Assembly: GCA_963667785.2 (NCBI GenBank)
Contig: CAXXMU010000001.1
Location: 192,001-256,000, forward strand
Direction of reading: 5' to 3'
DNA: 64,000 bases
From: Alphaproteobacteria bacterium
GTDB taxonomy: Bacteria > Pseudomonadota > Alphaproteobacteria > UBA828
The notes beneath the pieces were generated by a model. That model saw only the letters and a list, made by a program, of their open reading frames with translations, ran no database searches and had not been told where the DNA came from. Numbering within the stretch: the stretch's first letter is position 1; each line of letters opens with the position of its first letter. Shown here one piece after another: positions 2,651 to 23,280 of the stretch. The position numbers were made by a program, and so were the translations under genes.

Positions 2651-2715
2651 GGCTCTCCTAGCTTGATGAATGTCGGGGCAGCGTTCGCGCGACCCGGCGG
2701 ACCTCGCCGAGCGCC

Positions 2716-3564
2716 CTACTCGTCGTCATTGAAAACGCCGTCCAGCGCCATCTCTGATTTAATGTCCGCCATGGCTTGATCAATGCTGGCCGCCGCGCCG
2801 GTTTCTACCCGATGATTCGCAAATATCTCAAATAGCCTCTCTAAATCGGCGATCTCTTTGGCTCCGGCCAACCCCTCGCCTAGCCACGTCCCCCTCCAGA
2901 CGACCTGGCCGATCAGGGTGGCGCCGACGCTCATGCTGATTGGCTCATAGCTCTTATTGTCGCTGGTCAGTATCCACCCGCCTTCCGACTGCCTCTCCAG
3001 GCGCTTAACCAGCAGATCGCTCTCTATGCCAACCGCGAAAACCTTGCCCTGCCGTGCTTCGTTGCGACGATGGTCGACAAGAACGGTATCCCCGTCGATC
3101 AGCAGGGGCTCCATGCTGTCGCCCACGATTTCGACGGCGCTCACCAGCCCTGGCTGCAGTCCATGTCTCTGCATCCACTCGCGCCGAAACGCGAGAAGCG
3201 CCACAGGCTCCTCTTCCTGGAGCGTCGCGGCACCGTGCCCGGCAGCAAGGCGCACGGGGAGTTTAGGCACCAGGACATGCTCGGCATCGTCGCTGTCGGA
3301 ATCGTAGGGGCGAGCTTCAGCGGCGTCCGGGGCGGCGTTCCTCCCCACAACCATCCCTGTTCGCGGAGGTCCGATGTAGAATTCAAGACCCAAGGCGTCG
3401 CAGAGCCGCCGTAGCGTTTCAAATTTCGGGTCGAATCCTTTCTTGCGAAAGTTGTAGATCAGATAGGGGTTTCCAACCGCCGCGCGCGACGCGGTTGCCG
3501 GAGACAATCCCCTCTCCTCCATCCGCCGTTCGATCACGTCAAGCAAGTCAGCTGCGCTGGGCAT
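2716..3564 (-). CDS. CI-like repressor: XRE HTH plus S24 peptidase domain
   Basis: N-terminal HTH, AG cleavage site (LAAGHG), GDSMEP serine and LVKRL lysine; start placed at MPSAAD. Confidence 0.92.
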   Translation of the reverse strand: MPSAADLLDVIERRMEERGLSPATASRAAVGNPYLIYNFRKKGFDPKFETLRRLCDALGLEFYIGPPRTGMVVGRNAAPDAAEARPYDSDSDDAEHVLVPKLPVRLAAGHGAATLQEEEPVALLAFRREWMQRHGLQPGLVSAVEIVGDSMEPLLIDGDTVLVDHRRNEARQGKVFAVGIESDLLVKRLERQSEGGWILTSDNKSYEPISMSVGATLIGQVVWRGTWLGEGLAGAKEIADLERLFEIFANHRVETGAAASIDQAMADIKSEMALDGVFNDDE

Positions 3565-3565
3565 G

Positions 3566-3654
3566 TTGGCACAACTACCAATGCATCGGCCGCCCGGCAA
3601 ATTATTCTTGCATGTTGGTTCCCATACCAATATGGTCGTTGGTATGCAGGCCAA
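3566..3654. promoter_or_regulatory. Lysis/lysogeny switch: three operators TTGG-N8-CCAA (3566-3581, 3615-3630, 3639-3654) and a rightward promoter TTGCAT-N17-TATGGT (3608-3636)
   Basis: Three palindromic repeats with identical spacing between the divergent cI and cro starts. Confidence 0.8.
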
Positions 3655-3907
3655 CGATGTCGCGCTGATCATCCGCCTCGCCCGCCTCTACGGTGCGGCC
3701 CAGGGCTACTCTCTGAGCACGGTTAGCCTGCGAATTGCGGGCCAGGGCAGCCTCTTCGGTCGCTTGGAGGGCGGTAACGCCGATCTCACGATCGGCCGCC
3801 GCGATCGGATCCTCCAGAAGTTCTCCGACCACTGGCCTGAGGGCGCCGACTGGCCCGCCGACATCCCGCGCCCCGCGCCCTCGCCCGAGCGAGAGAACGC
3901 CGCGTGA
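3644..3907 (+). CDS. Cro/Ner-like early regulator
   Basis: Divergent from cI; small HTH with a FSDHWP..WP.DIPRP tail typical of alphaproteobacterial phage Cro-like proteins; leaderless ATG. Confidence 0.8.
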   Translation: MQANDVALIIRLARLYGAAQGYSLSTVSLRIAGQGSLFGRLEGGNADLTIGRRDRILQKFSDHWPEGADWPADIPRPAPSPERENAA

Positions 3908-4305
3908 TGCTGACGCGCCGTCGCTTCTTTGCGCTCTTCGCGGCCGCGCCCGTGGCGCTGATCACGGCGCCCACGGCGGCGGCGCATCGCCCGGCGCCCA
4001 TTCGGGGAGCCACCGCGTTCAGGGTGATGTTCGACGAGATCGGCGACGTCATTCGTCGTCGGCCTGCCTGCCCCAGGGTCGTCGAGGTAATCCGGCAGGA
4101 AGTGGATCGGGCGATCTCGGCCGGGTCCGGCTTCCGGGAATTCAGGCTCCGGACGGAGCCGCGGCTCGGGCGCCTGCCGTGTCTCCCAGGGCGCTGCATA
4201 TGGTGCGATCCCCTGCCGCCGGGTGGCCCATGGCGCGGGCTGAGCGAATTCACCGCAGAAGAGCGGGCGGTCATGGCCGCCAGGACGGTAGATGCCGATC
4301 GCTAG
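3904..4305 (+). CDS. Early hypothetical protein with a Tat-like signal and a MuF-like segment
   Basis: TRRRFF plus hydrophobic stretch; 17/30 identity of an internal segment to the MuF gene in this window. Confidence 0.65.
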   Translation: MMLTRRRFFALFAAAPVALITAPTAAAHRPAPIRGATAFRVMFDEIGDVIRRRPACPRVVEVIRQEVDRAISAGSGFREFRLRTEPRLGRLPCLPGRCIWCDPLPPGGPWRGLSEFTAEERAVMAARTVDADR

Positions 4306-4519
4306 CGCGCTGCCCGAAGTGCGCCGCCACGGGGTCCATCAGGGCCTCGTAGGCCACCGCCGCGCCCTCGTGACCTTCGGCGCGGAGCCCGTTGTGCCCG
4401 CGCCTCATGCGCTCGAACAGCTCCTTCGCGGGAAGCGTGTTCGTTTCGCACAGGGCGCCCGCCAGGTCCTGCAGCGCCTGGCCGAGCGCCATGATGCAGT
4501 CGTCCGTGGGGTAATTCAT
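4271..4519 (-). CDS. Small antisense-oriented gene inside the early operon
   Basis: GGAGGGG RBS, start MNYPTDD, own promoter ATGACG-N17-TACCAT upstream. Confidence 0.6.
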   Translation of the reverse strand: MNYPTDDCIMALGQALQDLAGALCETNTLPAKELFERMRRGHNGLRAEGHEGAAVAYEALMDPVAAHFGQRASDRHLPSWRP

Positions 4520-4654
4520 TTCTTCCCCTCCATCTGTGATGTCGGATTCCCGATGGTAGGGGAGGCGCGGCCCGGCGTCATGCAGGCGCCGGGCCGCATC
4601 GCCCCGATCCCCCTCCCTGCTGGGGGGGGCAGTGAGTGACGCGGGGCGCGCCGC

Positions 4655-5413
4655 GTGAGCGGGCCGGGCGATCTCCGCGTGGTGGAGCCCGGCGCGGCCG
4701 ACGCGCCGGCCCCGGCGGATCGCGAGGCGTGGGTCGCCGCCGGCCGGGCCTTCGGCCAGAGCCGCTCGGACGCCTCCTGGGAATTCGCCGACTGGCTCGC
4801 GGCTGGCGTCGAGAGCTTCGGCAAGCAGGCGCTGGAGCAGGCTGCCGCAACCACCGGCGCGTCCCGGACAAAAATTTCCCACTATCTAAGAGTTGCAACG
4901 GCTTACCCAATTGTGCGCCGGCGCACACCCCTTGGATTTTCCCACCACCTGGAGGTTGCGCGCCTCCCCGAGGCCGAGGCCGACCGCCTGCTGGACCAGG
5001 CCGAGGCCGAGGGCTGGAGCCGCGCCACGCTGCGCGAGGTCGTGCGCGAGGGACGCGAAGCGGAGACCGATCGCCTGCGCGCGGAGAACCGCCGCCTGCG
5101 CGCCCAGGTCGAGCTGCTGAGAAGCGGCCCGGAGGCGCGGGAGAAGGCCAACATGGAGGGCCAGCGCCTCCGCGAGGACCTCGGCGCGGACATTCGGGCG
5201 TACCTCACGGCGGGCCGGCGGATTGCCGAGCGCCTCGAGGCGGCGGCGGAGTCGCCGCTGCTCGTGCACCTGCACGGCAACGCGAGGCCGGCGCTGGTGA
5301 AATGGATTCGCAAGGCGCTGAAGGACGCCGGCGCGAAGCAGGCGGAGATCGCGACGGCGCGCACGCTGCGGGCCGTGGCGCGCCTGGCCGGCGAGAAGGC
5401 TGCGGAGGAATGA
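4655..5413 (+). CDS. LmbU-like phage DNA-binding protein
   Basis: W.FADWL..G and RR..LGFSHH.EVA.L motifs, coiled-coil tail; stop overlaps the transposase start. Confidence 0.6.
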   Translation: MSGPGDLRVVEPGAADAPAPADREAWVAAGRAFGQSRSDASWEFADWLAAGVESFGKQALEQAAATTGASRTKISHYLRVATAYPIVRRRTPLGFSHHLEVARLPEAEADRLLDQAEAEGWSRATLREVVREGREAETDRLRAENRRLRAQVELLRSGPEAREKANMEGQRLREDLGADIRAYLTAGRRIAERLEAAAESPLLVHLHGNARPALVKWIRKALKDAGAKQAEIATARTLRAVARLAGEKAAEE

Positions 5414-7176
5414 GCCTCGCGGACAATCCTTTCGCCGGCGATGCACCGCCCCCGCAGGCGCCGTGCGCGCCCGGTGCAACGCCCGATCTCGGCGACGCCT
5501 GGGCGCAGGCGTCCGAAGACGAGCGCGACGTCGCCCGCGCCAGGCTCGCGGCGGTCCGCCATGCCGACGACCTCGCGGCCGCCGGGATGCGGCGCATGGC
5601 GGCCGACGCCGCTGCGGCCGGCGCGGCCGGGGTGTCGGCTTCCGCCCTCGGCGCCTGGCGCCGCCGGGCGCGGCGCGCCCCCGAGGCGACCTGCGTCGCC
5701 GCACTGCTGGACGCGCGCCGCACCGGCCGGCCGCACTCGATCGGATCGTGGCCGGCCGCGCGCGAGGCCCTCGCGGCGCTCGGGCTGGAGTTCGCCGGGC
5801 ACCTCACGGCCGAGCAGGCACGGGACGCGCTGCTCGCCGACAGCGGGTGGGCGCCGTCGGTCAGCACCGTGGCCCGCTGGCTGGCGCGATGGCGCGCCGA
5901 GAACAAGCGCGCCATCGGCGCCGTGACCAATCCCGACCGCCACCGCTCGCGCGGGAGGCCGGCCCTCGGCAGGGCCGACGAGGCGGTCACGGCGCTCAAC
6001 CAGCTCTGGGAGGTCGACAGCACCATCGCGGACATCCGCTGCGCCGACGGGAAGCGCTACGCGCTGATCGTGGTGGTCGACGTCTACTCGCGCCGCGCCG
6101 CGGTGCTGGTGACGCCGAGGAGCCGCGCCCAGGCCATCGCCGCCCTGATCCGCCGCTGCCTGCTGGAGTGGGGCGTCCCGGCGGTCGTGAAGACGGACCA
6201 GGGCAAGGACTACGTCTCCCGCTACCTCAGCGGCGCCTTCGAGGACCTGGACGTCACCCACGCGACCTGCCTGCCCTACCGTCCCGAGCTGAAGCCGTTC
6301 GTCGAGCGCTTCATCGGCACCCTCTCCCGCGCGCTCTTCCCGATGCTGCCCGGCTTCACCGGCCACTCGGTCGCCGACGCCCAGGCGCTCCGCGAGCGCG
6401 TGAGCTTCGCCGCCCGGCGCGGGGAGCCGCCGCTCCAGTTTGGCGTCGCGCTCACGCCGGCCGCGCTGCAGCACCGCGTCGACACGTGGTGCGGCGCGAT
6501 GTACGAGCGCCGCGCCCATGCCGGGCTCGACGGCGAGACGCCCTTCCTCCGCGCCGCGTCCTGGCCGGGTGCCGTGCGGCGAATCGAGGACGCCCGCGCT
6601 CTCGACGCCCTGCTGGCCCCGGCACCGCGCGGCGGCGGGCGGAAGATCGCCAGGGGCGGAATCTCGGTCGGCGGCCGCGAGTACATCGCGGCCGAGCTGG
6701 GCGCGCACGTCGGCGCCGACGTCACGGTTCGGCTCGACCCGACCAACCCCGGCCGCATCCACGTCTACCGCCGGACCGGCGTCGAGGGCCGCAGGACGGA
6801 GTTCCTCTGCATCGCCGAGGACCCGGAGGTCACCGGCGCCGATCGCGCGGAGATCGCGGCGCGCGCCCGCGCGCTGGCCGACACCGCCGACAGGGAGGCG
6901 CGGCAATGGGCGGCCGATCTGAAGCGCCGCTACGAGCCCGAGGGCGCGATGGACCGCATGCTCGCCCGCGCCGCCGAGGAGGCGGAGAACGTGGTGGCGC
7001 TGCCCCGCCGGGGCGAGGCGCACGAGACGCCGGCGCTGGCCGAGGCCGCGCGCGCCGCCGGGGCCGCCGCCGCGAAGGGGCCGCGCGAGGGCACCGGCGA
7101 CGGGCCGTCGGCGCGCATGAAGTCCGCGCGCAGGCGCATCGCCGCCGCCAACCGTCACTTCATGGAGGACGACTGA
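5410..7176 (+). CDS. MuA-like DDE transposase
   Basis: WEVDST, KTDQGKDY and KPFVER catalytic motifs; Mu transposase C-terminal region; ATGA coupling at 5410. Confidence 0.93.
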   Translation: MSLADNPFAGDAPPPQAPCAPGATPDLGDAWAQASEDERDVARARLAAVRHADDLAAAGMRRMAADAAAAGAAGVSASALGAWRRRARRAPEATCVAALLDARRTGRPHSIGSWPAAREALAALGLEFAGHLTAEQARDALLADSGWAPSVSTVARWLARWRAENKRAIGAVTNPDRHRSRGRPALGRADEAVTALNQLWEVDSTIADIRCADGKRYALIVVVDVYSRRAAVLVTPRSRAQAIAALIRRCLLEWGVPAVVKTDQGKDYVSRYLSGAFEDLDVTHATCLPYRPELKPFVERFIGTLSRALFPMLPGFTGHSVADAQALRERVSFAARRGEPPLQFGVALTPAALQHRVDTWCGAMYERRAHAGLDGETPFLRAASWPGAVRRIEDARALDALLAPAPRGGGRKIARGGISVGGREYIAAELGAHVGADVTVRLDPTNPGRIHVYRRTGVEGRRTEFLCIAEDPEVTGADRAEIAARARALADTADREARQWAADLKRRYEPEGAMDRMLARAAEEAENVVALPRRGEAHETPALAEAARAAGAAAAKGPREGTGDGPSARMKSARRRIAAANRHFMEDD

Positions 7177-8153
7177 TGGCCGACATCATCCCGATCGACG
7201 ACATCGCCCAGGCGCGGGTTGCATGCCGCGCCGAGATGGACCGGCGCGGGCTCAGCATCAAGCGCGCCTCGCGCGAGATCGGCGTGAGCAGCTCCAGGCT
7301 GAGCCGGTGGCTCGCCGAGAAGTACACCGGCGACGTTCCCCGCGTGACGGCCCTGGTCGGCGCGTGGCTCACCACCGCGCAGGAGAGCGCGGCACGGTCG
7401 CTGGAGGCCGCCGGGCTGGACGTCTTCGCCGAAACGGGCAGCGCCAGCGAAGTCATGGACGCGCTCGCCTGCGCTCAGGCGAACGGTGACATGGCCCTGG
7501 TCTACGGGCCGTCCGGCCGGGGCAAGACGCGGGCCGCCGAGCACTACTGCGCGACCAACGCCGGCGTCGTGCGAATGGAGGCCACCGAAGCCATGAGCAC
7601 CATGGCGGGGTTTCTCGGCTGCGTCGCCGAGGCGCTCGGCGGTCATCGTGACCACGGCTCGGGGCTGGAGGCGGAGCGCGCCATCATCGACGATCTGCGC
7701 GGGCGGCGCGCGCTCCTGATCATCGACCAGGCCCACACGCTGAAGCCCTTCCTGCTGAACGAGCTCTGCTCGATCCGGAACATCTCCAGGGCCGGCGTGG
7801 CGCTCATCGGCGAGGAGAAGCTCCGCGGGGCGGTGGCGCGTTGCCCGTCGATCCTGGGGCGCATCGCCATGCGGGTCGACCTCCGCGTGCTACCGGCCGC
7901 CGACGTGGCCGCGATCGCCGCCGGGCCGCTCCGACGCCAGCCGAGCGCGGCCGAGACCAGGCGGCTGACGCGGGCGGCCTCCGGCGACAGCGGCCTCCAC
8001 ACCCTCCGGCGCATCCTCGCCGACGCTTGGCGGCTGGCCCGCTACGAGGGCCGGGACGGCATCGACGCCGACTGCCTGCGGACTGCGATCGAGAGCGTGA
8101 TCGAGCAGGAGGGCAGCGACGCTGCCGACGAGACGGCGCGGAAGGTCGCATGA
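7176..8153 (+). CDS. MuB-like AAA+ transposition ATPase (Walker B DQ variant)
   Basis: N-terminal HTH, GPSGRGKT, LLIIDQA; coupled to the transposase. Confidence 0.9.
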   Translation: MADIIPIDDIAQARVACRAEMDRRGLSIKRASREIGVSSSRLSRWLAEKYTGDVPRVTALVGAWLTTAQESAARSLEAAGLDVFAETGSASEVMDALACAQANGDMALVYGPSGRGKTRAAEHYCATNAGVVRMEATEAMSTMAGFLGCVAEALGGHRDHGSGLEAERAIIDDLRGRRALLIIDQAHTLKPFLLNELCSIRNISRAGVALIGEEKLRGAVARCPSILGRIAMRVDLRVLPAADVAAIAAGPLRRQPSAAETRRLTRAASGDSGLHTLRRILADAWRLARYEGRDGIDADCLRTAIESVIEQEGSDAADETARKVA

Positions 8154-12160: not shown

Positions 12161-12836
12161 CCGCGCCCCCGACGAGCGCAAGCGCCTCATCCGCCAGGTG
12201 CACGCCGAGGCGCGCCGCCTCGGCATCGATACCGACGAGCGCCGGGCGCTGCAGGTCCGCGCCGTCGGCAAGGAGAGCTGCGCCGACATGTCCGCCTCGG
12301 AGCTCCGCAGCGTCGTCGCCGCCATGGGCGAGGGCCGGGATCGCCTGCCGGACCACCCCTCGGCGCGGAAGCTGCAGGCGCTCTGGATCAGCGGCTGGTG
12401 CCTCGGCGTGATCGAGGACCGCCGCGACAGCGCCCTCTGCGCCTGGCTGCGCCGCCAGGCCAAGGTCGACGCGGCGCGGTGGATCACGCCGGGCCGCGCG
12501 GCGAAGGCGGTCGACGCGCTCCAGCAGTGGCTCACGCGGGAGGCCGGCGTGGACTGGTCGCCCTATATCCTCGTCGGCCGCGACGGCGTGAATCGCGAGG
12601 TGCACCAGCCGCAGGCCCGCGTGCTGGAAGCGCAGTGGCGCCTGCTGCACAAGCTGGGCTGGGTGCGGAATCCCGACCTGAGCGCGCTGGCCTCCTACGC
12701 CACCCGGCACGGCCGCCTCGCGCATGCGGGCTCGCATACCGAGCTCCGCGACAAGGAGGCCGTCGCGCTGATGCAGGACCTCGGGACGCAGATCCGAGAG
12801 GCGAAGGGCGGCGATGCCGATCAGTCGCGAAGCTGA
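12153..12836 (+). CDS. GemA/gp16-like (DUF1018) regulator
   Basis: LIRQVH...LGID...GKESCADMS..EL; RKLQALW; position before mor. Confidence 0.8.
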   Translation: MPDRAPDERKRLIRQVHAEARRLGIDTDERRALQVRAVGKESCADMSASELRSVVAAMGEGRDRLPDHPSARKLQALWISGWCLGVIEDRRDSALCAWLRRQAKVDAARWITPGRAAKAVDALQQWLTREAGVDWSPYILVGRDGVNREVHQPQARVLEAQWRLLHKLGWVRNPDLSALASYATRHGRLAHAGSHTELRDKEAVALMQDLGTQIREAKGGDADQSRS

Positions 12837-13260
12837 GCGGGCCTATCCCGGCGGCTCTCTCCGCTCGCCGGAGTGGCTCGCGATCCGTCGCGCCATCCTC
12901 GGCCGGGCCGGCCGATTCTGCGAATGCCGGGGGGAATGCGGGATCGACCACCGTGACGAGCGGGCCGACGAGGCGCTCGCCTTCTCGCCGGCGATCGAGT
13001 TGGCGATCGAGCCGCAGCGCTGCTGGGCCATGCACGGCGATGCTCACCCCGTCACCGGCTCCCGCGTGGTGCTGACCATCGCCCACCTCGATCAGGATCC
13101 GGCGAACAATACGCCCGACAACCTCCGCGCCCTCTGCCAGCGGTGTCACAACCGCCTCGACGCGCCCCACAGGCGCGCACACGCGGCCGAGACGCGCAGG
13201 CGGCGCCTGGCGTGCGGAGACCTCTTCGACGGCCCCTACGACGCCCAGGGGGCGCCGTGA
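12814..13260 (+). CDS. HNH-like zinc-binding protein
   Basis: VVLTIAHLDQDPANN..DNLRALCQRCHN. Confidence 0.75.
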   Translation: MPISREAERAYPGGSLRSPEWLAIRRAILGRAGRFCECRGECGIDHRDERADEALAFSPAIELAIEPQRCWAMHGDAHPVTGSRVVLTIAHLDQDPANNTPDNLRALCQRCHNRLDAPHRRAHAAETRRRRLACGDLFDGPYDAQGAP

Positions 13261-13278: not shown

Positions 13279-13620
13279 GTGAGCGGTGAGCCGGCGCTGC
13301 CGGGGGTGCTGGCGGATATCGAGCGCCTGGCGGGGCGCGGAGCCGCAATCGACCTGGCCCTTCAGCACGGCGGCCGGGAGGTCTACTTCCCGGCGGAGAA
13401 GGCGATCGCCGGCGGGGACGACCATCCGCTGCTCCACGTGCTCGGCGCGGCCGCTGCGCTCGTGGTCTGCCGGCACGTGGGTGGGAACGCCATCTATGTG
13501 CCGAGAGCGCGCCGCGCCTGCGCGCTCGAGCTCGCGCGCCGGGGCAAGACGCCGGCCGAGATCGCCGGCCTCCTGAAGACGTCCATCTACACCGCGCGGC
13601 GCTATATCCGACGCTCCTGA
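13279..13620 (+). CDS. Mor/C-family late transcription activator
   Basis: GGREVYFP and GGNAIYVP repeats plus C-terminal HTH; last gene before the lysis block. Confidence 0.8.
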   Translation: MSGEPALPGVLADIERLAGRGAAIDLALQHGGREVYFPAEKAIAGGDDHPLLHVLGAAAALVVCRHVGGNAIYVPRARRACALELARRGKTPAEIAGLLKTSIYTARRYIRRS

Positions 13621-13628
13621 GCGACACC

Positions 13629-13677
13629 TTCACGGGACCATGGTCCCGTGAACATTCCTCGCGCGACTCCATACCAT
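13629..13677 (+). promoter_or_regulatory. Putative late (Plys-like) promoter: palindrome TTCACGGGACCATGGTCCCGTGAA plus -10 TACCAT
   Basis: Second copy of the 76-101 palindrome, 18 nt from GTGAAC to TACCAT (13672-13677). Confidence 0.72.
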
Positions 13678-15864: not shown

Positions 15865-16163
15865 CGTCGTGGGCGCAATGGGAAGAGGAGCGCTGCCGGC
15901 TCGACTGCCTGCGCCTGCTCGACGAGCTCCCCGCCTATTCGGCGAACCACCGCACGCTCGCCGCCGCGTTGCAAACCCGCGGCCACAACCCCTCCGCCGA
16001 CGCCCTGGCCGACACCCTCAACTGGCTGGCCGGGCGGGGCCTCCTGGAGACCCGCGAGGAGGCCGGCTACGTCGTGGCGCGGCTGACCGATCGCGGCGCC
16101 GACGTCGCGGCCGGGCGTGAGACGGTGCCCGGCGTCGCACGCCCCGCACCGGGCGATGACTGA
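15861..16163 (+). CDS. Mu gp26-like protein
   Basis: RL..LRLL...Y.AN...LNWL...GL...ARLT.RGADVA.GR..VPGVARP. Confidence 0.8.
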   Translation: MTSWAQWEEERCRLDCLRLLDELPAYSANHRTLAAALQTRGHNPSADALADTLNWLAGRGLLETREEAGYVVARLTDRGADVAAGRETVPGVARPAPGDD

Positions 16164-16722
16164 GGCCGGCAAGGTGACGCGCGGCCGCATGGGCCGCATC
16201 GATCAGCTCCGCGAGGATCTGCGCGACGCGATTCACAAGTCCCTGCGCGGCGGCGTGCCGCAGAAGACGATCCTCCAGGAGGTGAACGCGGCGCTGGCGG
16301 AGAGCGGCGACAAGCCGATCAGCGCTGCGAGCCTCAACCGCTACGTCAACCGCCCGGCGATCCGGGCGCTGGCCGAGCGCGCGCGCATCGCCTGCGAGAT
16401 CGGCGACGCGGTCGCCCGCTCGGCCGAGGAGGGCGGTGGCACCAACCTCGATCGGGGGCTGGTGCAGGCCGGCCAGACCCTCGCCATGGAGGCGCTGGCG
16501 GAGATCGACTGGGACGGGTTCGAGCCCGAGGACCGCGTGAAGATGGTCGCCAACTTCGGTCTGGCCGTTCGACGCTTCGCCGCGTCCGCCGCCGTCACCG
16601 ACGCGCGCGAGCGGGCGATCCGCGCTGAGGTCGCTGAGGTCGCGGCGAAGGAGGCGCGCAGGCAGGGGCTGTCGGCCGAGGGCGCGGCGAAGATCCGGGC
16701 CAAGGTCGAGGGGGCGGAATGA
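16156..16722 (+). CDS. Small terminase, Mu gp27/DUF3486-like
   Basis: IDQL...ISAASLNRY and GLS.E...IR tail; immediately upstream of the terminase. Confidence 0.8.
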   Translation: MTEAGKVTRGRMGRIDQLREDLRDAIHKSLRGGVPQKTILQEVNAALAESGDKPISAASLNRYVNRPAIRALAERARIACEIGDAVARSAEEGGGTNLDRGLVQAGQTLAMEALAEIDWDGFEPEDRVKMVANFGLAVRRFAASAAVTDARERAIRAEVAEVAAKEARRQGLSAEGAAKIRAKVEGAE

Positions 16723-18167
16723 CGCGGTCGCTCCTGCCCTATCAGCGACGCTGGGTCGCCGATGGCACGCAGCTTAAGATCGTGGAGAAGTCGCGTCGCA
16801 TCGGGCTGAGTTGGGCCGAGGCCTACGACGCGGTGATGCACGCGGCCGAGGGACGCGGCAACGTCATCTATCAGTCCTACGACAAGGAGATGACGCGCGG
16901 CTTCATCGACGACTGCGCCGAGTGGGCCGAGCACCTGGAGTTCGAGGCCGGCGCGATCGGCGAGAGCGTCATAGATGACGGGGATTCGGGGGCCGTTCAG
17001 GTCTTCCGCATCCGGCTCGCGTCGGGGAAGACCATCACGTCGATGACCAGCGCACCGCGTGCGCTCAGGTCGAAGGGGCGGCCGGGAGACCGCGCGATCA
17101 TCGACGAGGCCGCCTTCGTCGACGACCTGGATGAGGTGCTGAAGGCGGCGCTCGCCTTTCTCACCTGGGGCGGCCGCGTCCACGTGATCTCGACCCACAA
17201 CGGCGAGGCCTCGCCCTTCAACCTGCTTCTGCGCGACGTGCGCGACGGCAGGCAGCCGGGATCGGTCCATACCATCACCTTCCGCCAGGCGATCGACGAG
17301 GGTCTCGGCCGGCGGATCTTCGAGGTGACCGGCCGCGAGTGGACGCCGGAGGCCGAGGCGGAGTGGGAAGCCGGGATCCGGCGCACCTACGGCCACCGCG
17401 GCAAGGAGGAGCTCGACTGCGTGCCCTCCGCCGGCTCCGGCGCCTGGCTCACCTGGGAGATGATCCGGGCCTGCGAGGACAAGACCGGCGAGGCCGGAGA
17501 GGCGGAGCACTTCGCCGGGAACATCACCTATATCGGCGTCGACGTCGCCCGCCGGCGCGACCTGTGGGTCGCCGCCGTGCTGGAGCGCGTGGGCGACGTG
17601 CTCTGGCTGCGCGAGCTCGTCGTGCGGCAGGGAATCTCCTTCAGCGAGCAGCGGGCCATCGTCCGCAACCTGGTCGTCCACTATCGTCCCACGCGGATCG
17701 CCGTCGACCAGACCGGCATGGGCGAGGCCGTGGTCGAGCAGCTGCAGGAGGACCACGGCACGAGCCGGGTCGAAGGCGTGCTGATGACCGGCCCGCGCCG
17801 CCTCGACGTGGCCACGGCGCTGCGCGAGGCGGTCGAGGACAAGCGACTGCGGATCCCGGCCGACGACGATCTGCGCCGCGATCTCCACTCGATCCGCACC
17901 GAGGCCGGCCCGACCGGCCAGCCACGCCTGCTGGCCGACACGGCGGAGACCGACGGCCACGCCGACCGCTTCTGGTCTATGGCCCTGGCCTGCGCCGCCG
18001 CGGCGCAGGGCACCGGCCCGATCGAGGGCGCGATCGCCGGCCCGAGCGTGGCGAGCGGCCTCTTCGCGCAGATCGACGCCGCCGGCCGGCCGGTAGACCG
18101 GCAGTCGATCGACTACGACCGCGGCATCGTCTATGGCATATCCTCCCGCATGCGGGGCTTCAGCTGA
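16719..18167 (+). CDS. Terminase large subunit (Mu gp28-like)
   Basis: LLPYQ, EKSRRIGLSW, IIDEAAF, GVDVAR, HADRFW. Confidence 0.93.
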   Translation: MTRSLLPYQRRWVADGTQLKIVEKSRRIGLSWAEAYDAVMHAAEGRGNVIYQSYDKEMTRGFIDDCAEWAEHLEFEAGAIGESVIDDGDSGAVQVFRIRLASGKTITSMTSAPRALRSKGRPGDRAIIDEAAFVDDLDEVLKAALAFLTWGGRVHVISTHNGEASPFNLLLRDVRDGRQPGSVHTITFRQAIDEGLGRRIFEVTGREWTPEAEAEWEAGIRRTYGHRGKEELDCVPSAGSGAWLTWEMIRACEDKTGEAGEAEHFAGNITYIGVDVARRRDLWVAAVLERVGDVLWLRELVVRQGISFSEQRAIVRNLVVHYRPTRIAVDQTGMGEAVVEQLQEDHGTSRVEGVLMTGPRRLDVATALREAVEDKRLRIPADDDLRRDLHSIRTEAGPTGQPRLLADTAETDGHADRFWSMALACAAAAQGTGPIEGAIAGPSVASGLFAQIDAAGRPVDRQSIDYDRGIVYGISSRMRGFS

Positions 18168-19684
18168 TGCGCCTGCCCCGGTTCATGCGCCCGGCGCAGG
18201 CGCCCGCGGGCGAGGTGGCGCCGGCAGGGATCGCGGGGCGCATGGCGCCCTACATCGGCGAGCTGCCGGCGGATCCCCGCTCGCCGGCGCGGTACGCCGA
18301 CGCCTGGCGGGACGAGAGCAACGCGCTGCGCCTCTATCGCGACACCCTGAAGGACGAGCGCTGCCAGGCGGCGCTGGACCAGCGCCTGGATGCCGCGATC
18401 GCGCGGCCCTGGGAGGTCGAGCCCGGCGGGGACGACGATGAAGACAAGGTAGCCGCGCAGCATCTCACCGAGCAGCTGCATGCGATCGACTTCAACCCGG
18501 TCTGCCGGCAGCTGCTCTTCGGCGTCTGGTACGGCTACGCCGTCGCTGAGGTGATGTGGGGCACCGCCGACAATAAGGTGGTCATCGAGGACGTGAGGGT
18601 CCGCTCCGTCGACCGCTTCAGATGGTCCCCCGAGGGCGCGCTCCTGCTGCGCACCGACAGCCGGCCCCAAGGCGAGGAGGTGCCGGACGGCAAGTTCGTG
18701 CTGCTGGCCCGGCCGGGCGAGCACGACGACCTGCCGCACGGGCCGGGCCTCGCCAGGTGGTGCTACTGGCCCGTCTGGATGCGCCGGCACGGCCTCCTGT
18801 TCTGGTCGGTCGCGTTGGAGAAGTTCGGGGCGCCGAGCGCGAAGGGCACCTATCCGTCCGGCGCCAGCGAGAAGGAGAAGAGCGAGCTCCTCGACCTCGT
18901 CCAGGCGTTCGCGACGTCCAAGGGGATCACGATCCCGGAGGGGCAGGACGTCGAGCTCGTCGAGAGCGCGCGGCGCGCCGGCGGCGACTTCGAGGCGTTC
19001 TGCCAGTACCTCGACCGCTCCGTCACGACCACGATCCTCGGCCAGTCGTCCACCACCGACCAGGGACCCTGGAAGGGCACCGCCGAGGTGCAGAAGGACG
19101 TGCGCGACGAGACCGTGGCCGCCGACTGCCGGCTCCTCGACGACGCGCTGACCTCGACGATCGCGGCATGGCTCACCGCGTGGAACTTTCCCAGGGCCGC
19201 GCTGCCCAGGATCGTCCGCGACGCGTCTCCGGCCGAGGACCTCGACGCCAGGGCGACGCGCGAGGAGACCGTCTCGCGCACGACCGGGCTGCGGCCGACG
19301 AAAGAGCACATCGAGCAGGTCTACGGCGGCGAGTGGGAGGAGGCTCCGGCTCCGCCGCCCTCGCCGGTCCCGCCTCCCGGCCCCCGCGAGGACGATGACG
19401 ACGAGGCCGAGCTCGCAGCGCGGCGCGACCGGGACGCCATTGGCCGCGCGGTCACCGAGCTCATCTTCGGCGACGGCTGGGAGCCGATGATGTCGCCGGT
19501 CATCGAGCCCGTCCTCCAGGAGGCCGCCGCCGCCCTCGGGCGCGGCGAGAGCCTGGAGGAGTTCCGGGACCGCCTGCCCGCCCTCTTCGCCGAGATGGAT
19601 TCCTCGCGCATGGTCGAGACGCTCCGGCGCATGGGCTTCAGCGCGAACCTCTCCGGCAACGAGGGCCTGGTAGACCCCCGCTAG
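18167..19684 (+). CDS. Portal protein (DUF935, Mu gp29-like)
   Basis: GYAVAE, EKFGAP, ILGQ motifs; coupled to the terminase. Confidence 0.9.
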   Translation: MRLPRFMRPAQAPAGEVAPAGIAGRMAPYIGELPADPRSPARYADAWRDESNALRLYRDTLKDERCQAALDQRLDAAIARPWEVEPGGDDDEDKVAAQHLTEQLHAIDFNPVCRQLLFGVWYGYAVAEVMWGTADNKVVIEDVRVRSVDRFRWSPEGALLLRTDSRPQGEEVPDGKFVLLARPGEHDDLPHGPGLARWCYWPVWMRRHGLLFWSVALEKFGAPSAKGTYPSGASEKEKSELLDLVQAFATSKGITIPEGQDVELVESARRAGGDFEAFCQYLDRSVTTTILGQSSTTDQGPWKGTAEVQKDVRDETVAADCRLLDDALTSTIAAWLTAWNFPRAALPRIVRDASPAEDLDARATREETVSRTTGLRPTKEHIEQVYGGEWEEAPAPPPSPVPPPGPREDDDDEAELAARRDRDAIGRAVTELIFGDGWEPMMSPVIEPVLQEAAAALGRGESLEEFRDRLPALFAEMDSSRMVETLRRMGFSANLSGNEGLVDPR

Positions 19685-19696
19685 GACGCCGCGCCG

Positions 19697-20890
19697 ATGC
19701 CCGAGCCGGAGATCCTCGCCGTCCCGCCCAGGGAGGCGGTCGCCCACTTCAGGGCCAAGGGCTATCACGTCGGCTACAGCTGGCTCGACACGGCCGCCGG
19801 CGAGCACACGCGCTCCTTCACCGTTGCCAAGGCCATGCGCCTCGACGTCCTGGAGGCGATCCGCGGCGAGGTCGACCGGGCGATCGCGGACGGCATCACC
19901 TTCGAGGACTTCGAGAAGGCGCTCGAACCGCGCCTGAGGGAGATGGGGTGGTGGGGGCGCGGCCAGATGGTCGACCCGCTCACCGGCGAGCTCCGCAACG
20001 TGCAGCTCGGCTCGCGGCACCGGCTGCGCACGATCTTCGACACCAACCTCCGCATGTCCTACGCCAAGGGGCGCTGGGAAATGATCGAGCGCGACGCCGC
20101 GGCCGCGCCGTATCTCATGTACGACGCCGTCAACGACGCGCTGACGAGGCCCGAGCACCTGGCCTGGGACGGCACCGTGCTGCGCTGGGACGATCCGTGG
20201 TGGCGCTCCCACTACCCGCCGAACGGGTGGTTCTGCCGGTGCCGGGTGATCCAGATGTCGGAGGAGGACCTGGAGGAGTTCGGCATCGAGCCCTCGGGCG
20301 GGCCGCCTGCCGAATCACTCAGGACGCGGCCGTGGACCAACAAACGCACCGGCGAAACGCACCAGGTGCCGATCGGGATCGATCCGGGCTTCCAGGACAA
20401 CGTGGGGCTCGTGGGCGGCGGCCGGGACACGGCGGACCGTCTGATCGGGAAGATGGATGCCGCGTCGCCCGATATGGCGCGGGCGGTCGTGGGCTCGCCC
20501 TGGCGCACGGCGCTGTTCCACCGCCACCTGGCGGGGCGGGACGAGGGAGACTGGCCCGTGGCTGCAGCACCGGCTGCGGTTCTGGCCGCCGCCGGTGGGC
20601 AGTCGCAGACGGTGCGGCTTTCGGGCGCGTCTGCGGCGAAGCAGGCCGAGCGGCACGGCGACCTCTCCCCGGAGGACTATGCCCGCGTCCAGGCGATCAT
20701 CGATCAGGGCGAGTTCTTCGAGGCCGGCGGCCACCATGTGATGGGGTTCCTGGAGATGGACGGCCGCCCCTGGCGCGCGGTGGTGAAGGCGACGCGCGAC
20801 GGCGCGGAGACCTACGTCGTCAGCTTCCACAAGGCTCAGCCATACGACCTCGAGGCCGCGCGGCGGCACCTGCCGACGATCTCCCGCTGA
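19697..20890 (+). CDS. MuF (gp30) head morphogenesis protein with a C-terminal nuclease-like (PBECR-like) extension
   Basis: SFTVAK, RLRTIFDTN, TRPEH, PPNGWFCRC; extra ~130 aa with K..RH.DL..EDY and RAVVK.T......VVSFHK. Confidence 0.88.
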   Translation: MPEPEILAVPPREAVAHFRAKGYHVGYSWLDTAAGEHTRSFTVAKAMRLDVLEAIRGEVDRAIADGITFEDFEKALEPRLREMGWWGRGQMVDPLTGELRNVQLGSRHRLRTIFDTNLRMSYAKGRWEMIERDAAAAPYLMYDAVNDALTRPEHLAWDGTVLRWDDPWWRSHYPPNGWFCRCRVIQMSEEDLEEFGIEPSGGPPAESLRTRPWTNKRTGETHQVPIGIDPGFQDNVGLVGGGRDTADRLIGKMDAASPDMARAVVGSPWRTALFHRHLAGRDEGDWPVAAAPAAVLAAAGGQSQTVRLSGASAAKQAERHGDLSPEDYARVQAIIDQGEFFEAGGHHVMGFLEMDGRPWRAVVKATRDGAETYVVSFHKAQPYDLEAARRHLPTISR

Positions 20891-20896
20891 GAGGGG

Positions 20897-20970
20897 TGGA
20901 TGGCGCCGGGCGGGCCACAACCCCCGCGCTCGCCCGAAGGCATGAGAGTATTGCGAATGCTTCCGGCGCC
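20897..20970 (-). ncRNA. Putative 74-nt tRNA-like small RNA convergent on muF
   Basis: Promoter TCGACG(21000-21005)-N17-TATAGT(20977-20982); 8-bp closing stem 20963-70/20902-09; cUUCGg arm; 5-bp T-like arm; ends AUCCA. Confidence 0.55.
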
Positions 20971-21029
20971 GGCCCCACTATAGCCGCGTCGTCGGCGGCC
21001 GTCGACTGCGGCGGCAGGCGCTGCACCCC

Positions 21030-21279
21030 TGGTTGATTCACACCCCGTCGCGGGCGACGATTTTCCGGCCGATTCACGCCCTGTGAACGGCTCGATTATT
21101 TGTCGTTTCTGGCCAGTCCACAGCCCCTGCACCGCCCGATTCCCAGAGACTTATGCGCGGTGCCTCTCAGCGCTTTGCGCCTTCGAGGACGTCGCACGCC
21201 GCGGTCACCGCGCGATTCCACGAGCGTTCACGAGATTCCGGACGATTTCGCGATTCCGTCCGACTTCTGCTTCCCGACA
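21030..21279. repeat. Putative right end of the prophage with transposase-binding repeats
   Basis: GATTCAC x2; roughly 10-bp periodic CG(A/C)GATTCC-like units 21211-21258; terminal ACA at 21277-21279. Confidence 0.55.
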
Positions 21280-21346
21280 GCGACGTGCCGCCCCGCAATC
21301 CCGGGGTTGCGCCCGGCCCGGGCCGTTGCGGCATACTCGCGGTGCG

Positions 21347-22249
21347 ATGACCGAAGCCTGGACCGTTCCCGAGCCCGAAGACGCGCACGAGGTGCGCACG
21401 GCGGACGGCTACCCCATCGCGCTGCGCCGATACGGAAATCCCGACGGTCCCAGGCTCGTCATGAGCCACGGGAACGGCTTCGCGATCGATGCCTACTGGC
21501 CCTACTGGTCCCGCTTCATCCGGGAGTTCGACGTCTTCGTGCACGACATCCGCAGTCACGGCCGCAATCCCGTCGGCGACCTGGACGTGCACAGCATCCC
21601 CATGATCGCGGAGGACTTCACCTGCGTCTCGCGCCACATCGACCGGCGCTTCGGCGCGAGGCCCAAGGTTGGCGTGTTCCATTCGCTCTCGGCGCTGGCG
21701 GTGCTGCACGCGCCCATCGTCCACGACTGTGCCGCCCTGGTGCTGTTCGACCCGCCGATCCTGCTGCCGGGCAGGACCACGGGCGATCTGGAGAAAGTCG
21801 GGTCCACGATGGGGAAGGCGACGCGCAAGCGGCAGGAGCGCTTCGAGACGCCCGCGGCCTACGCGGCGTTTCTCTCGACCAGGGACGCGTTCGCCGGCCT
21901 GGACGCGGGTGGGCTCGACCTCCTCGCGCGTACCACGCTCCGGCCCGTCGGCAGCGGCGCCGGCTACCGGCTGAGCTGTCCGCCCGAGCACGAGGCCCGG
22001 ATGTGGGATTCCCTCTATCCCTTCGCGCGGATGGTGGACTACGGCGCGATCCCCTGTCCGATCAAGGTGATCGGCTCCGATCCGACCATGCGCAACTCGT
22101 TCCTTCCGAGCACCGAAGTGCCGGAGCTGCTGCGCCTGGACTACGACTTCGTTCCCGAAACGACGCACCTGCTGCAGTTGGAGAACCCGGAGGCGTGCGC
22201 CGCCTTCACCCTCGACTACCTCGCCAGGCGAGGACCTGGCGCCGGCTAG
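21347..22249 (+). CDS. Alpha/beta hydrolase
   Basis: SHGNG, DIRSHG, GVFHSLSA nucleophile elbow, THLLQLE. Confidence 0.85.
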   Translation: MTEAWTVPEPEDAHEVRTADGYPIALRRYGNPDGPRLVMSHGNGFAIDAYWPYWSRFIREFDVFVHDIRSHGRNPVGDLDVHSIPMIAEDFTCVSRHIDRRFGARPKVGVFHSLSALAVLHAPIVHDCAALVLFDPPILLPGRTTGDLEKVGSTMGKATRKRQERFETPAAYAAFLSTRDAFAGLDAGGLDLLARTTLRPVGSGAGYRLSCPPEHEARMWDSLYPFARMVDYGAIPCPIKVIGSDPTMRNSFLPSTEVPELLRLDYDFVPETTHLLQLENPEACAAFTLDYLARRGPGAG

Positions 22250-22320
22250 CGCAAGTTCTGACCGGACGGGGTCACGTCCGGTTGTCGCACGCTCACCCGT
22301 TGGCATGCAGTGCGGCTGAA

Positions 22321-22436
22321 GACTCCCCCACCTCACCCTGGCCCTCTCCGCCCCCAGGGGCGGAGAGGGAAAGCAGCCGGCGCCGTCACGTTCCCCCTCC
22401 GCCTTTGGGGGAGGGGGATAGGGGGAGGTGGGAGTC
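22321..22436. repeat. Alphaproteobacterial REP/RIME-like palindromic element
   Basis: Terminal IR GACTCCC..ACCTC/GAGGTGGGAGTC enclosing CCCTCTCCGCCCC-CA-GGGGCGGAGAGGG and a second hairpin. Confidence 0.7.
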
Positions 22437-22575
22437 GTTCAAGCCGTGGTGACCTCGTGTGGTCGGACAATGCTATAGCGGCCACTTCCTCCATCGCGCC
22501 GCGGGGCGCGATATGGCACGCGAACCGTGCCGCTGCTAAGCTGGCGGCCGCGCGCAACGAGACGGGACGAGGGCG

Positions 22576-23280
22576 ATGGCTGAGCGGATGGTCGACCTGA
22601 CGTTGACGCTGACCGACAACATGCCGGCGCACAAGCTCTTCCAGCGGCCGGTCATCGTGCCCCACTACACCCACGAGCAGACCCGCGAGCAGTTCTTCCT
22701 GGGCGTCGAGGACGACCGCCTCTCCTTCGCCACCACCTACATGGGCATGATCGACCATATAGGCACCCACGTGGATGCCTTCTACCACGTCAATCCCGAC
22801 GGCGCGCCGGTGGACCAGATGCCGCTCGACATGTTCATGGGCAAGGCGGTCTGCTGGGACCTGACCCATATCCCCGACCTCGGCGACATCGACGTGGCCG
22901 ACTTCGAGGCGGCGGAGGAGAAGGGAGGGGTCAAGGTGGACGGCCACATCGTGCTGCTCAACACCGGCCTCCACAACCGCCACTACCCGGACGTGAAGTC
23001 GGTCTGGAGCAATCCCGGCATCACCGCGGCCGCGACCCACTGGCTGGCGGACCGGGGCTCGAAGCTGCACGGCGTCGAGGGCCCGTCGACCGACAAGCCG
23101 TCGGACAATCTCTTCCCCAACCACCGCGTCTGCCGCGACCGCGGCATCGCCCACTACGAGTGGCTCATCAACCTGGAGGAGCTGGTCGGCAAGGGCGAGT
23201 TCATGTTCTACGGGCCGCCCATCAAGCTCGGCAACGGCAGCGGCGCGCCCGTCCGCGCCTGGGCGATCGTCGACGAGTAG
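22576..23280 (+). CDS. Cyclase-family metal-dependent hydrolase (KynB-like)
   Basis: DHIGTHVDA motif; GSGAPVRA. Confidence 0.9.
   Translation: MAERMVDLTLTLTDNMPAHKLFQRPVIVPHYTHEQTREQFFLGVEDDRLSFATTYMGMIDHIGTHVDAFYHVNPDGAPVDQMPLDMFMGKAVCWDLTHIPDLGDIDVADFEAAEEKGGVKVDGHIVLLNTGLHNRHYPDVKSVWSNPGITAAATHWLADRGSKLHGVEGPSTDKPSDNLFPNHRVCRDRGIAHYEWLINLEELVGKGEFMFYGPPIKLGNGSGAPVRAWAIVDE

Follow-up and report, generated by a model that had tools for sequence, protein, structure and literature searches.

The muF locus and its small RNA

The stretch of DNA analysed here (the window) comprises 64,000 nucleotides of an Alphaproteobacteria bacterium (GenBank assembly GCA_963667785.2, contig CAXXMU010000001.1, positions 192,001 to 256,000 of the forward strand) and has a G+C content of 70%. 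Its plus-strand genes from about 4.6 to 20.9 kb make up the right arm of a transposable prophage of the Mu-like kind, as assigned with PHROGs and Pfam, and the final coding sequence (CDS) of this arm is muF, the gene of a Mu gp30-type minor head protein. Directly beyond muF, on the opposite strand, lies a compact element which, by comparison with its relatives, is a structured small RNA gene and the steady companion of a predicted ribonuclease (RNase) domain at the MuF C-terminus. The features of the locus are as follows.

19697–20890, plus strand: muF, encoding the minor head protein of 397 aa, final CDS before the prophage right end (Pfam Phage_Mu_F, aa 54–185, E 5.7e-24; phrog_220, aa 6–355, E 3.5e-89; frame signal in G+C at third codon positions, GC3)
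20603–20887, plus strand: predicted MuF-C/PBECR-like RNase domain of the BECR fold, aa ~303–397 (family profiles, AlphaFold2 (AF2) model, structure neighbours)
20888–20901, minus strand: C/U-rich, G-poor 3' tail of the RNA, AUCCACCCCUCUCA, antisense to the muF stop codon region and conserved in homologues
20902–20970, minus strand: structured core of the RNA, a four-way junction of helices P1, P4, P3 and P2 (covariation, strand test, covariance model R1)
20977–21005, minus strand: predicted sigma70-type promoter of the RNA, with the -35 box TCGACG at 21005–21000, a 17-nt spacer and the -10 box TATAGT at 20982–20977 (scan and conservation)
21138–21279, plus strand: right prophage end (attR), with GATTC..GACTT-type repeats at 21138–21152, 21234–21248 and 21252–21266 and a terminal CA at 21278–21279

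After muF the order is thus RNA element, promoter, three repeats and terminal CA, and coding signal (GC3) is absent from the 390 bp that follow the gene (20891–21300). Read on the minus strand from 20970 to 20902, the core of about 69 nt is GGCGCCGG-A-AGCAUUCGCAAUACU-CUCAUGCC(UUCG)GGCGAG-C-GCGGG(GGUUGUGG)CCCGC-CCGGCGCC, in which an 8-bp closing stem, P1, encloses P4, P3 (with a UUCG loop and an AU bulge) and P2, and in which the P4 loop (CGCA) forms a 4-bp kissing helix with the P2 loop (UGUG). The covariance model R1 scores the window RNA at 95.3 bits. No covariance model of Rfam 15, those for tRNA and transfer-messenger RNA (tmRNA) included, matched the element at E <= 10 in searches of 19000–23000 and 20860–21020, and ARAGORN reports no tRNA there, its sole call being a tRNA-His at 13131–13205. 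The element is single-copy in its own genome (G000), on which ground we rejected a genomic repeat family; mimicry of a host RNA sequence was also rejected, there being no significant second match in the genome.

Is there an RNA gene here at all? The element could be thought a chance GC-rich palindrome, a plus-strand terminator or 3' untranslated structure of the late operon, or a DNA site for transposition, and the window by itself gives some grounds for thinking so: single-sequence RNAfold does no better than shuffles on either strand (z -0.07 on the minus strand, where 85 of 200 shuffles fold as well, and -0.76 on the plus strand), the stem 8-mer GGCGCCGG is found 50 times in the window, and the element sits near transposase-binding repeats. 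That the element is real rests instead on comparison with relatives, which reveals compensatory changes in every helix. These changes, together with a strand asymmetry, a tetraloop kept on the minus strand only, a conserved minus-strand promoter and the occurrence of the element away from Mu ends, make the absence of an RNA gene barely credible.

A search of genome contigs with an exact 23-nt core pattern returned 43 copies in 37 stretches, mostly from alphaproteobacterial metagenome-assembled genomes (MAGs) and also from genomes labelled Arenicellales, Binatia, Vicinamibacteraceae and Gammaproteobacteria; the same pattern had 0 matches in viral contigs. In the alignment of these 43 sequences (A2) we tested P1 (8 bp), P4, P3, P2 and the 4-bp loop-loop pseudoknot. 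Pairing was kept in 97.2% of 1115 cells, and 11 of 26 pairs had changed on both sides; none of 500 shuffles reached any of the measures, and slid controls were only 38–44% paired. Covariation was seen at six pairs of P1, two of three in P4 and three of four in the kissing helix, which was 95.9% paired, while P2 and P3 were invariant in this set, itself chosen by a pattern that lies within them. Divergent homologues were then reached via the protein: in a second alignment of 17 such sequences (A4), fitted to the model and hence biased toward structure, 92.6% of cells were paired and 13 of 22 pairs were compensatory, those of P2 and P3 among them. RNAalifold, run independently, returned P1, P3 and P2. 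When the loci of relatives were compared by BLAST, the 70-nt element was 86–93% identical beside MuF proteins only 57–63% identical. A small plus-strand open reading frame (ORF) across the element was considered and rejected: the frame is broken by indels and stops (TAA in copies of the L086 type), and the substitutions are compensatory for pairing. On these alignments the element is a well-supported structured RNA family with a tertiary contact, previously undescribed.

The strand follows from the same material. G-U cells outnumber A-C cells by 32 to 7, an excess indicating that the RNA is read from the minus strand of the window, and the P3 loop retains UNCG across divergent copies (as UUCG, UCCG, UGCG or UACG) on that strand only. 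The -10 box ends 6 nt ahead of the first G of P1, and the promoter scan found 2 promoter-like sites against 0.1 expected from shuffles. Across 45 upstream regions the -35 T is kept in 38, the -12 T in 30, the -11 A in 30 and the -7 T in 26; TTGA and a 17-nt spacer are common, and of the pattern TTGnnn-N17-TAnnnT the first part occurs in 32 regions and TAnnnT in 29. The gene is accordingly read, from sequence comparison, as a minus-strand small RNA of some 85–100 nt with a predicted sigma70-type promoter of its own, directed at the 3' end of muF. An earlier note on this DNA, drawn from the letters of the window, had given the element with this sequence, position and promoter and had described a self-promoted, cloverleaf-shaped minus-strand RNA that is not a functional tRNA. 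All of this is borne out by the covarying structure behind homologous genes, the strand test, the upstream regions and the silence of ARAGORN and the Rfam models. The description had overlooked the kissing helix, the conserved C/U tail and the site beside the prophage right end, and the CCA end that it listed proves to be a chance feature of the window copy, present in only 4 of 45 homologues.

The tail deserves attention because the RNA points at muF. At tail positions 2–14, C or U makes up 66–95% and G occurs in 0–7 of 44 sequences. Since the bias is kept in orphan copies and in the flipped copy at locus L022, it belongs to the RNA itself and does not stem merely from the last codons of muF. 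Orphan copies and arrays, apart from any muF, are found at L106 (five copies), L110 (two), L124 (two) and L027 (three in tandem) and at G012:C13:123495. The L027 array (5163–5450) has a promoter-like box at each copy; the L106 array (2666–4917) is next to the methyltransferase gene of a type IIG restriction-modification system, and there is no PBECR gene in its neighbourhood. In both arrays the sequences of P1, P4 and the kissing loops differ between copies, and array periods are about 110–160 nt or more. At L022 the entire RNA gene is inverted, so that it runs co-directionally with muF, and it keeps its promoter-like box, its tail and an intrinsic terminator; this single case suggests that the RNA behaves as an independent trans-acting gene.

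These copies bear on a cis-antisense, type I-like role, in which the RNA would read into the muF 3' end, and duplex formation or transcriptional collision would destabilise or silence the muF or late-operon mRNA in lysogens, the cloverleaf serving only to stabilise the transcript. The geometry suits such a role well. At every locus except one the RNA converges on muF and abuts or overlaps the muF stop codon, its tail complements the purine-rich sequence in which muF ends, and in the window our scan finds no terminator between the RNA core and muF. There are precedents too: in Bacillus, type I pairs are convergent and overlap at their 3' ends, and RalA is said to be a prophage small RNA antitoxin of an enzyme toxin, RalR. 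Yet the flipped RNA gene of L022 cannot be antisense to muF, orphan copies and arrays occur where there is no muF, the C/U tail is retained where it is antisense to no muF sequence, and neither the covarying kissing loops nor the invariant P3 would be needed. Moreover, the RNA follows the catalytic state of the MuF C-terminal domain rather than muF as such (see below), and we consider antisense control of muF unlikely.

The MuF C-terminal domain and its pairing with the RNA

The C-terminal 128 aa of the window MuF have no Pfam match (E <= 10) and no sequence match in the PDB. The family is more telling: among 47 aligned members, seven match PBECR3 (best E 4.3e-6), two PBECR1, two PBECR2 and one BrnT, and 481 representative relatives of the domain were found at E <= 1e-3, C-terminal wherever other sequence is present. 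The AF2 model of the domain has a pLDDT (predicted local distance difference test) of 96.3. Its best Foldseek match is BrnT (3u97; probability 0.98, E 0.096), and VIA structure comparison places it near 7vd7_A (Z 7.1), BrnT (Z 6.7), CdiA-CT (Z 6.5 for 5i4q, then 5.6 and 5.5) and colicin D (5znm_B, Z 5.5), the best structural neighbours all being BECR RNase toxins, including a Salmonella toxin-antitoxin (TA) toxin and RelE/HigB, over a Z range of 4.5–7.1. From modelling, MuF residues ~303–397 adopt the BECR fold, and together with the family profiles this makes them the predicted MuF-C PBECR domain. According to Iyer (2017, PMC5512222), Mu gp30 bears such a C-terminal PBECR ('MuF-C') domain, inactive in Mu and predicted to be active in orthologues. 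The Ct_MAD domain of proteobacterial MuF (Jamet 2017, PMC5576092) may be the same domain.

In alignment A1, residues K315, H320, K364, T366 and H378 are conserved, and K315, H320, T366 and H378 are invariant or nearly so. The latter four sit at the positions described for the colicin-like active site, which comprises a Lys-His pair preceding the core helix, with a further His in the final strand (bioRxiv 10.64898/2026.08.28.747851). The Lys/His/His motif, putatively catalytic, is therefore intact in the window MuF, and the partner RNase domain is apparently active. The same residues are absent from the degenerate domains of six loci in two lineages (L031–L035 and L037).

We assessed linkage starting from the protein. 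Peptide patterns of the domain alone were used to fetch 32 loci, with no use of the RNA in selection, and R1 then matched the RNA at 30 of these loci, each time immediately behind the domain and convergent with it; 28 of the matches have E <= 1e-3 (R1 E-values being rough). A further locus, L187, yielded its RNA at 35.5 bits with filters off, and the sole exception, L174, has lost the end of its domain to a fusion. Five genomes of this genus together contain 21 domain matches at E <= 1e-10: the RNA lies within ~20 nt in 19, a weak match lies 313 nt away in one, and the remaining one is a fragment. In 101 related genomes the RNA was detected in 6, all of one genus, at 1 to 12 copies each (12 in G012), a patchy spread of the kind expected of a mobile element. 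The RNA gene is, judged from these loci, a fixed companion of one MuF-C (PBECR, BECR-fold) subfamily. The earlier note had proposed such a link and had called the MuF C-terminus nuclease-like with no protein immunity gene behind it; the link now has strong comparative support (31 of 32 protein-selected loci, and loss of the RNA with the motif), the nuclease likeness is upheld by the family Pfam matches, AF2, Foldseek and VIA, and no coding signal intervenes before the prophage end. What it took for an unusual 'extension' of MuF corresponds to the MuF-C domain already described for proteins of the Mu gp30 type.

The pairing is with the domain and not with muF as such. Among 62 muF loci, the RNA was present only in five that keep the K/H/H motif (strong matches at L021, L024 and L038, divergent ones at L022 and L027). 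R1 found no RNA at the six loci with the degenerate domain, and no adjacent RNA match at the other 51, the C-termini of which are unrelated or do not align. Outside phage contexts the domain occurs as stand-alone ORFs of ~120–180 aa with their own start codons, again together with the RNA, at L105, L116 and L133.

These observations weigh on two further explanations. The RNA could be a trans-acting small RNA carried as a phage accessory gene (a moron), its tail, which resembles an anti-Shine-Dalgarno sequence, pairing with the ribosome-binding sites of host or phage mRNAs, and its linkage to muF reflecting only a position at the prophage end. The predicted sigma70 promoter, the conserved single-stranded CCUCC-like tail, the typical small-RNA layout of L022 with its intrinsic terminator and the location at a prophage extremity, where accessory genes are frequent, would all be expected of such a gene. 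It is nonetheless a rather improbable account, since the linkage persists outside Mu contexts with stand-alone domain ORFs and breaks where the domain is degenerate though muF and the phage context remain. Alternatively, the RNA could be a cofactor (guide, specificity factor or cargo) in a ribonucleoprotein with MuF-C that is packaged in the head along with MuF and delivered to the next host. The pairing of the genes is as strict as an inhibitor would demand. MuF is described as virion-internal and injected, and an RNA-binding role is proposed for the inactive MuF-C of Mu, by Iyer et al. (PMC5512222). A cofactor does not readily account for orphan arrays of the RNA that stand without the protein, and the RNA is absent with catalytically degenerate domains, which an RNA-binding cofactor role should tolerate. 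We also know of no precedent for such a cofactor, and think it very unlikely.

One of the stand-alone pairs has a setting of its own. At L105:2523-2982 (= G016:C1 ~3,530,5xx) a 121-aa PBECR ORF and the RNA lie between cas3 and cse1 of a type I-E CRISPR-Cas system. The location is of interest because CRISPR RNAs have been suggested in print as possible targets of PBECR domains; alternatively, the pair could be a relic of a Mu insertion.

The prophage and its relatives

The remaining features of the right arm, all assigned with PHROGs/Pfam and all on the plus strand, are given here.

5353–7176, plus strand: MuA transposase
7164–8153, plus strand: MuB
right arm, plus strand: a Gam-like gene and an HNH gene
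13279–13620, plus strand: Mor/C-type late activator
16117–16722, plus strand: TerS (Mu gp27), with TerL in the same arm
18167–19684, plus strand: Mu-type portal

The chromosomal genes beyond muF encode a hydrolase, a cyclase, CobW, an amidase and others (PHROGs/Pfam). Three observations fix the boundary. Aligned copies from other genomes part from one another exactly after the terminal CA; in copy A of genome G012, a deletion derivative, the right-end sequence recurs as an inverted repeat at the opposite end; and in the sister genome G001 chromosomal alignment begins only at 21303. Together they place the RNA gene between the last phage CDS and attR. Within that interval, alignment of the copies confines conservation to the RNA, its promoter and the end repeats.

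The whole prophage measures ~39 kb (G000:C1 ~174,085–213,279) and extends 18 kb beyond the left edge of the window (loci L200/L201); a left-end-type repeat lies ~39 kb from attR. Its layout has two arms, which is unusual. Genes for protease, major head, sheath, tube, tape-measure and baseplate proteins run leftward on the minus strand to attL, and the early, lysis and packaging genes run rightward, ending with muF at attR; between the arms are a DNA methyltransferase gene (289–1110) and a CI/LexA-like repressor gene (2716–3672, minus strand). A truncated prophage or a capsid-less satellite had been considered, Mu gpT not having been found in four genomes, and was rejected because the head and tail genes are on the other arm, just left of the window. 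Two late operons each have a copy of one perfect 26-nt palindrome at their head: at 75–100 it stands before the leftward head/tail operon, and at 13629–13654 it follows the Mor-like activator gene and precedes the rightward operon. The palindrome may be a binding site for the late activator or a late promoter element that works in both directions. The tRNA-His call by ARAGORN (13131–13205, minus strand) falls within an HNH endonuclease ORF (12814–13260, plus strand; phrog_1571, E 1.9e-30) and is probably spurious, if not an overlapping relic.

In many relatives what is left is a remnant of the right arm, with truncated TerS/TerL, portal, MuF, RNA and attR (for example G012:C9 ~184,737–189,882, L097/L098, and G102:C1 ~1,245,300–1,249,000, L199), and one remnant copy of 5.15 kb with both Mu-type ends is a mini-Mu-like deletion derivative. 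A MuA query found none in three other genomes, which is uninformative, as the copies there are right-arm remnants. Outside the prophage, at ~22219–22440, the hydrolase gene is followed by a long GC-rich hairpin or repeat; at least six more partial copies occur in the genome, Rfam gives spurious microRNA-family matches only, and it resembles a REP/MITE-type element (repetitive extragenic palindrome or miniature inverted-repeat transposable element).

A possible RNA inhibitor and its place among known systems

The reading we favour, at somewhat short of an even chance, is that the RNA is a dedicated inhibitor or immunity factor of the RNase domain, acting like a type III antitoxin or as a tRNA-shaped decoy. 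On this view a folded RNA of tRNA shape, resistant to cleavage, would bind the domain, with the closed UNCG tetraloop in the place of the anticodon loop. It would thereby keep a virion-destined RNase silent in the producing or lysogenic cell and possibly protect the lysogen against the same RNase injected by incoming relatives. The net effect would be a type III-like protein-RNA toxin-antitoxin or immunity pair within a phage head protein. A little more tentatively, a BECR RNase delivered by virions may have as its antitoxin or immunity factor a folded RNA shaped like tRNA, in which a closed tetraloop replaces the anticodon loop, and this RNA might also ride in the virion bound to MuF. The two would then represent a new protein-RNA toxin-antitoxin architecture, which would occur in a head protein, as a free two-gene module and as orphan 'RNA immunity' arrays.

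Several lines of evidence point this way. According to PMC5576092 and bioRxiv 10.64898/2026.08.28.747851, MuF/BECR toxins carry a protein immunity gene in the downstream slot. In the window the RNA fills that slot, with no coding signal between muF and attR. The linkage is strict in both the protein-first and the genus-wide counts, the RNA tracks the catalytic state of the domain, and it persists as a two-gene module and as orphan arrays, much as orphan immunity genes do. Covarying kissing loops and a retained UNCG loop also fit recognition by a protein better than simple antisense pairing.

Other observations weigh against RNA inhibition of the RNase. The convergent orientation at all loci but one leaves room for a role of the overlap with the muF mRNA 3' end, which favours antisense control, and the conserved C/U tail suggests pairing with a purine-rich Shine-Dalgarno-like sequence, needless for pure protein binding. 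To our knowledge, the inhibitors of BECR-fold toxins are proteins, and the antitoxins of type III systems consist of tandem repeats that are processed, precede the toxin gene and share its direction. The fold matches are only moderate (Z <= 7.1; Foldseek E 0.096). R1 matched none of five more distant PBECR relatives from viral contigs, even with filters off, and the counts of linked loci overstate the independent observations, as many come from related MAGs.

Inspected by eye, these five viral-contig loci carry other stem-closed elements. At L194:1873-2010 and L197:1885-2010 (IMG/VR contigs) the region behind a more distant MuF-PBECR gene holds a stem-closed element of another kind, together with a well-conserved putative promoter of convergent orientation, TTGAAT-N17-TATCTA on the other strand. 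Long GC-rich elements closed by a stem are seen at L193 and L195 too. RNAs that accompany PBECR domains may form a larger superfamily, of which these loci give a hint.

The C-terminal domain of Mu gp30-type MuF was predicted to be an RNase in 2017 without an assigned partner or role, and proteobacterial MuF 'extensions' had been left as possible toxins lacking recognisable immunity genes; an RNA gene in the immunity slot turns this into a testable hypothesis. If the RNA does inhibit the RNase, RNA-based toxin neutralisation would reach the BECR fold and virion-injected effectors, a substrate-shaped RNA could stand in for an immunity protein, and this would be the first immunity partner of a colicin/CDI-type (contact-dependent inhibition) RNase fold that is an RNA and not a protein. 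Whichever explanation holds, the family is a new one, spread by Mu-like prophages in several bacterial phyla.

Type III TA systems (ToxIN, CptIN, TenpIN) combine an endoribonuclease with an adjacent structured inhibitory RNA and occur on phages, prophages and defence islands. The pair described here resembles them in these settings as well as in having a predicted RNase beside a structured non-coding RNA proposed to bind and inhibit it, the RNA units of which can multiply. It differs in that the RNase is a BECR domain fused to a virion protein and not of the ToxN/AbiQ type, that one cloverleaf of 69 nt with kissing loops takes the place of short toxin-cut tandem repeats, and that this RNA lies downstream and convergent under its own promoter, not upstream in the same operon.

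With type I TA systems and RalR/RalA the locus shares a small RNA that has its own promoter, faces a toxin gene of a prophage (here a putative one) and overlaps the 3' end of that gene. Here, however, the partner is a 397-aa MuF or a ~120–180-aa BECR domain and not a small hydrophobic membrane peptide, and the RNA fold is far more elaborate. The tail in the window is antisense to the muF stop region, but the L022 homologue, co-directional with muF, is not antisense at all.

The MuF polymorphic toxins and PBECR polyvalent proteins are presented in PMC5576092 and PMC5512222 with a MuF N-terminus, a C-terminal BECR-type RNase, a place in the packaging module of a temperate phage and a partner gene directly downstream, as here. 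Unlike those MuF toxins, among them BECR-Tox3/DUF4926 in bioRxiv 10.64898/2026.08.28.747851, the window has an RNA gene and not a protein immunity ORF in the downstream slot. The literature searched, which was covered in part and without supplements, describes no RNA partner of MuF or PBECR.

The RNA also invites comparison with tRNA, sharing a four-arm cloverleaf, a closing stem stacked on the 3' hairpin, and 5' and 3' hairpin loops that interact as the D and T loops do. The likeness is one of topology only: there is no T-loop or anticodon-loop sequence and no conserved CCA, the closing stem has 8 bp, a UNCG tetraloop stands at the anticodon position, and ARAGORN and the Rfam tRNA/tmRNA models miss the element. 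tRNA-like domains are found in tmRNA and YrlA as well, and the colicin D immunity protein has been described as a tRNA mimic. Going by the titles of their structure entries, colicin D and CdiA-CT, the BECR relatives of the domain paired with this RNA, are tRNases.

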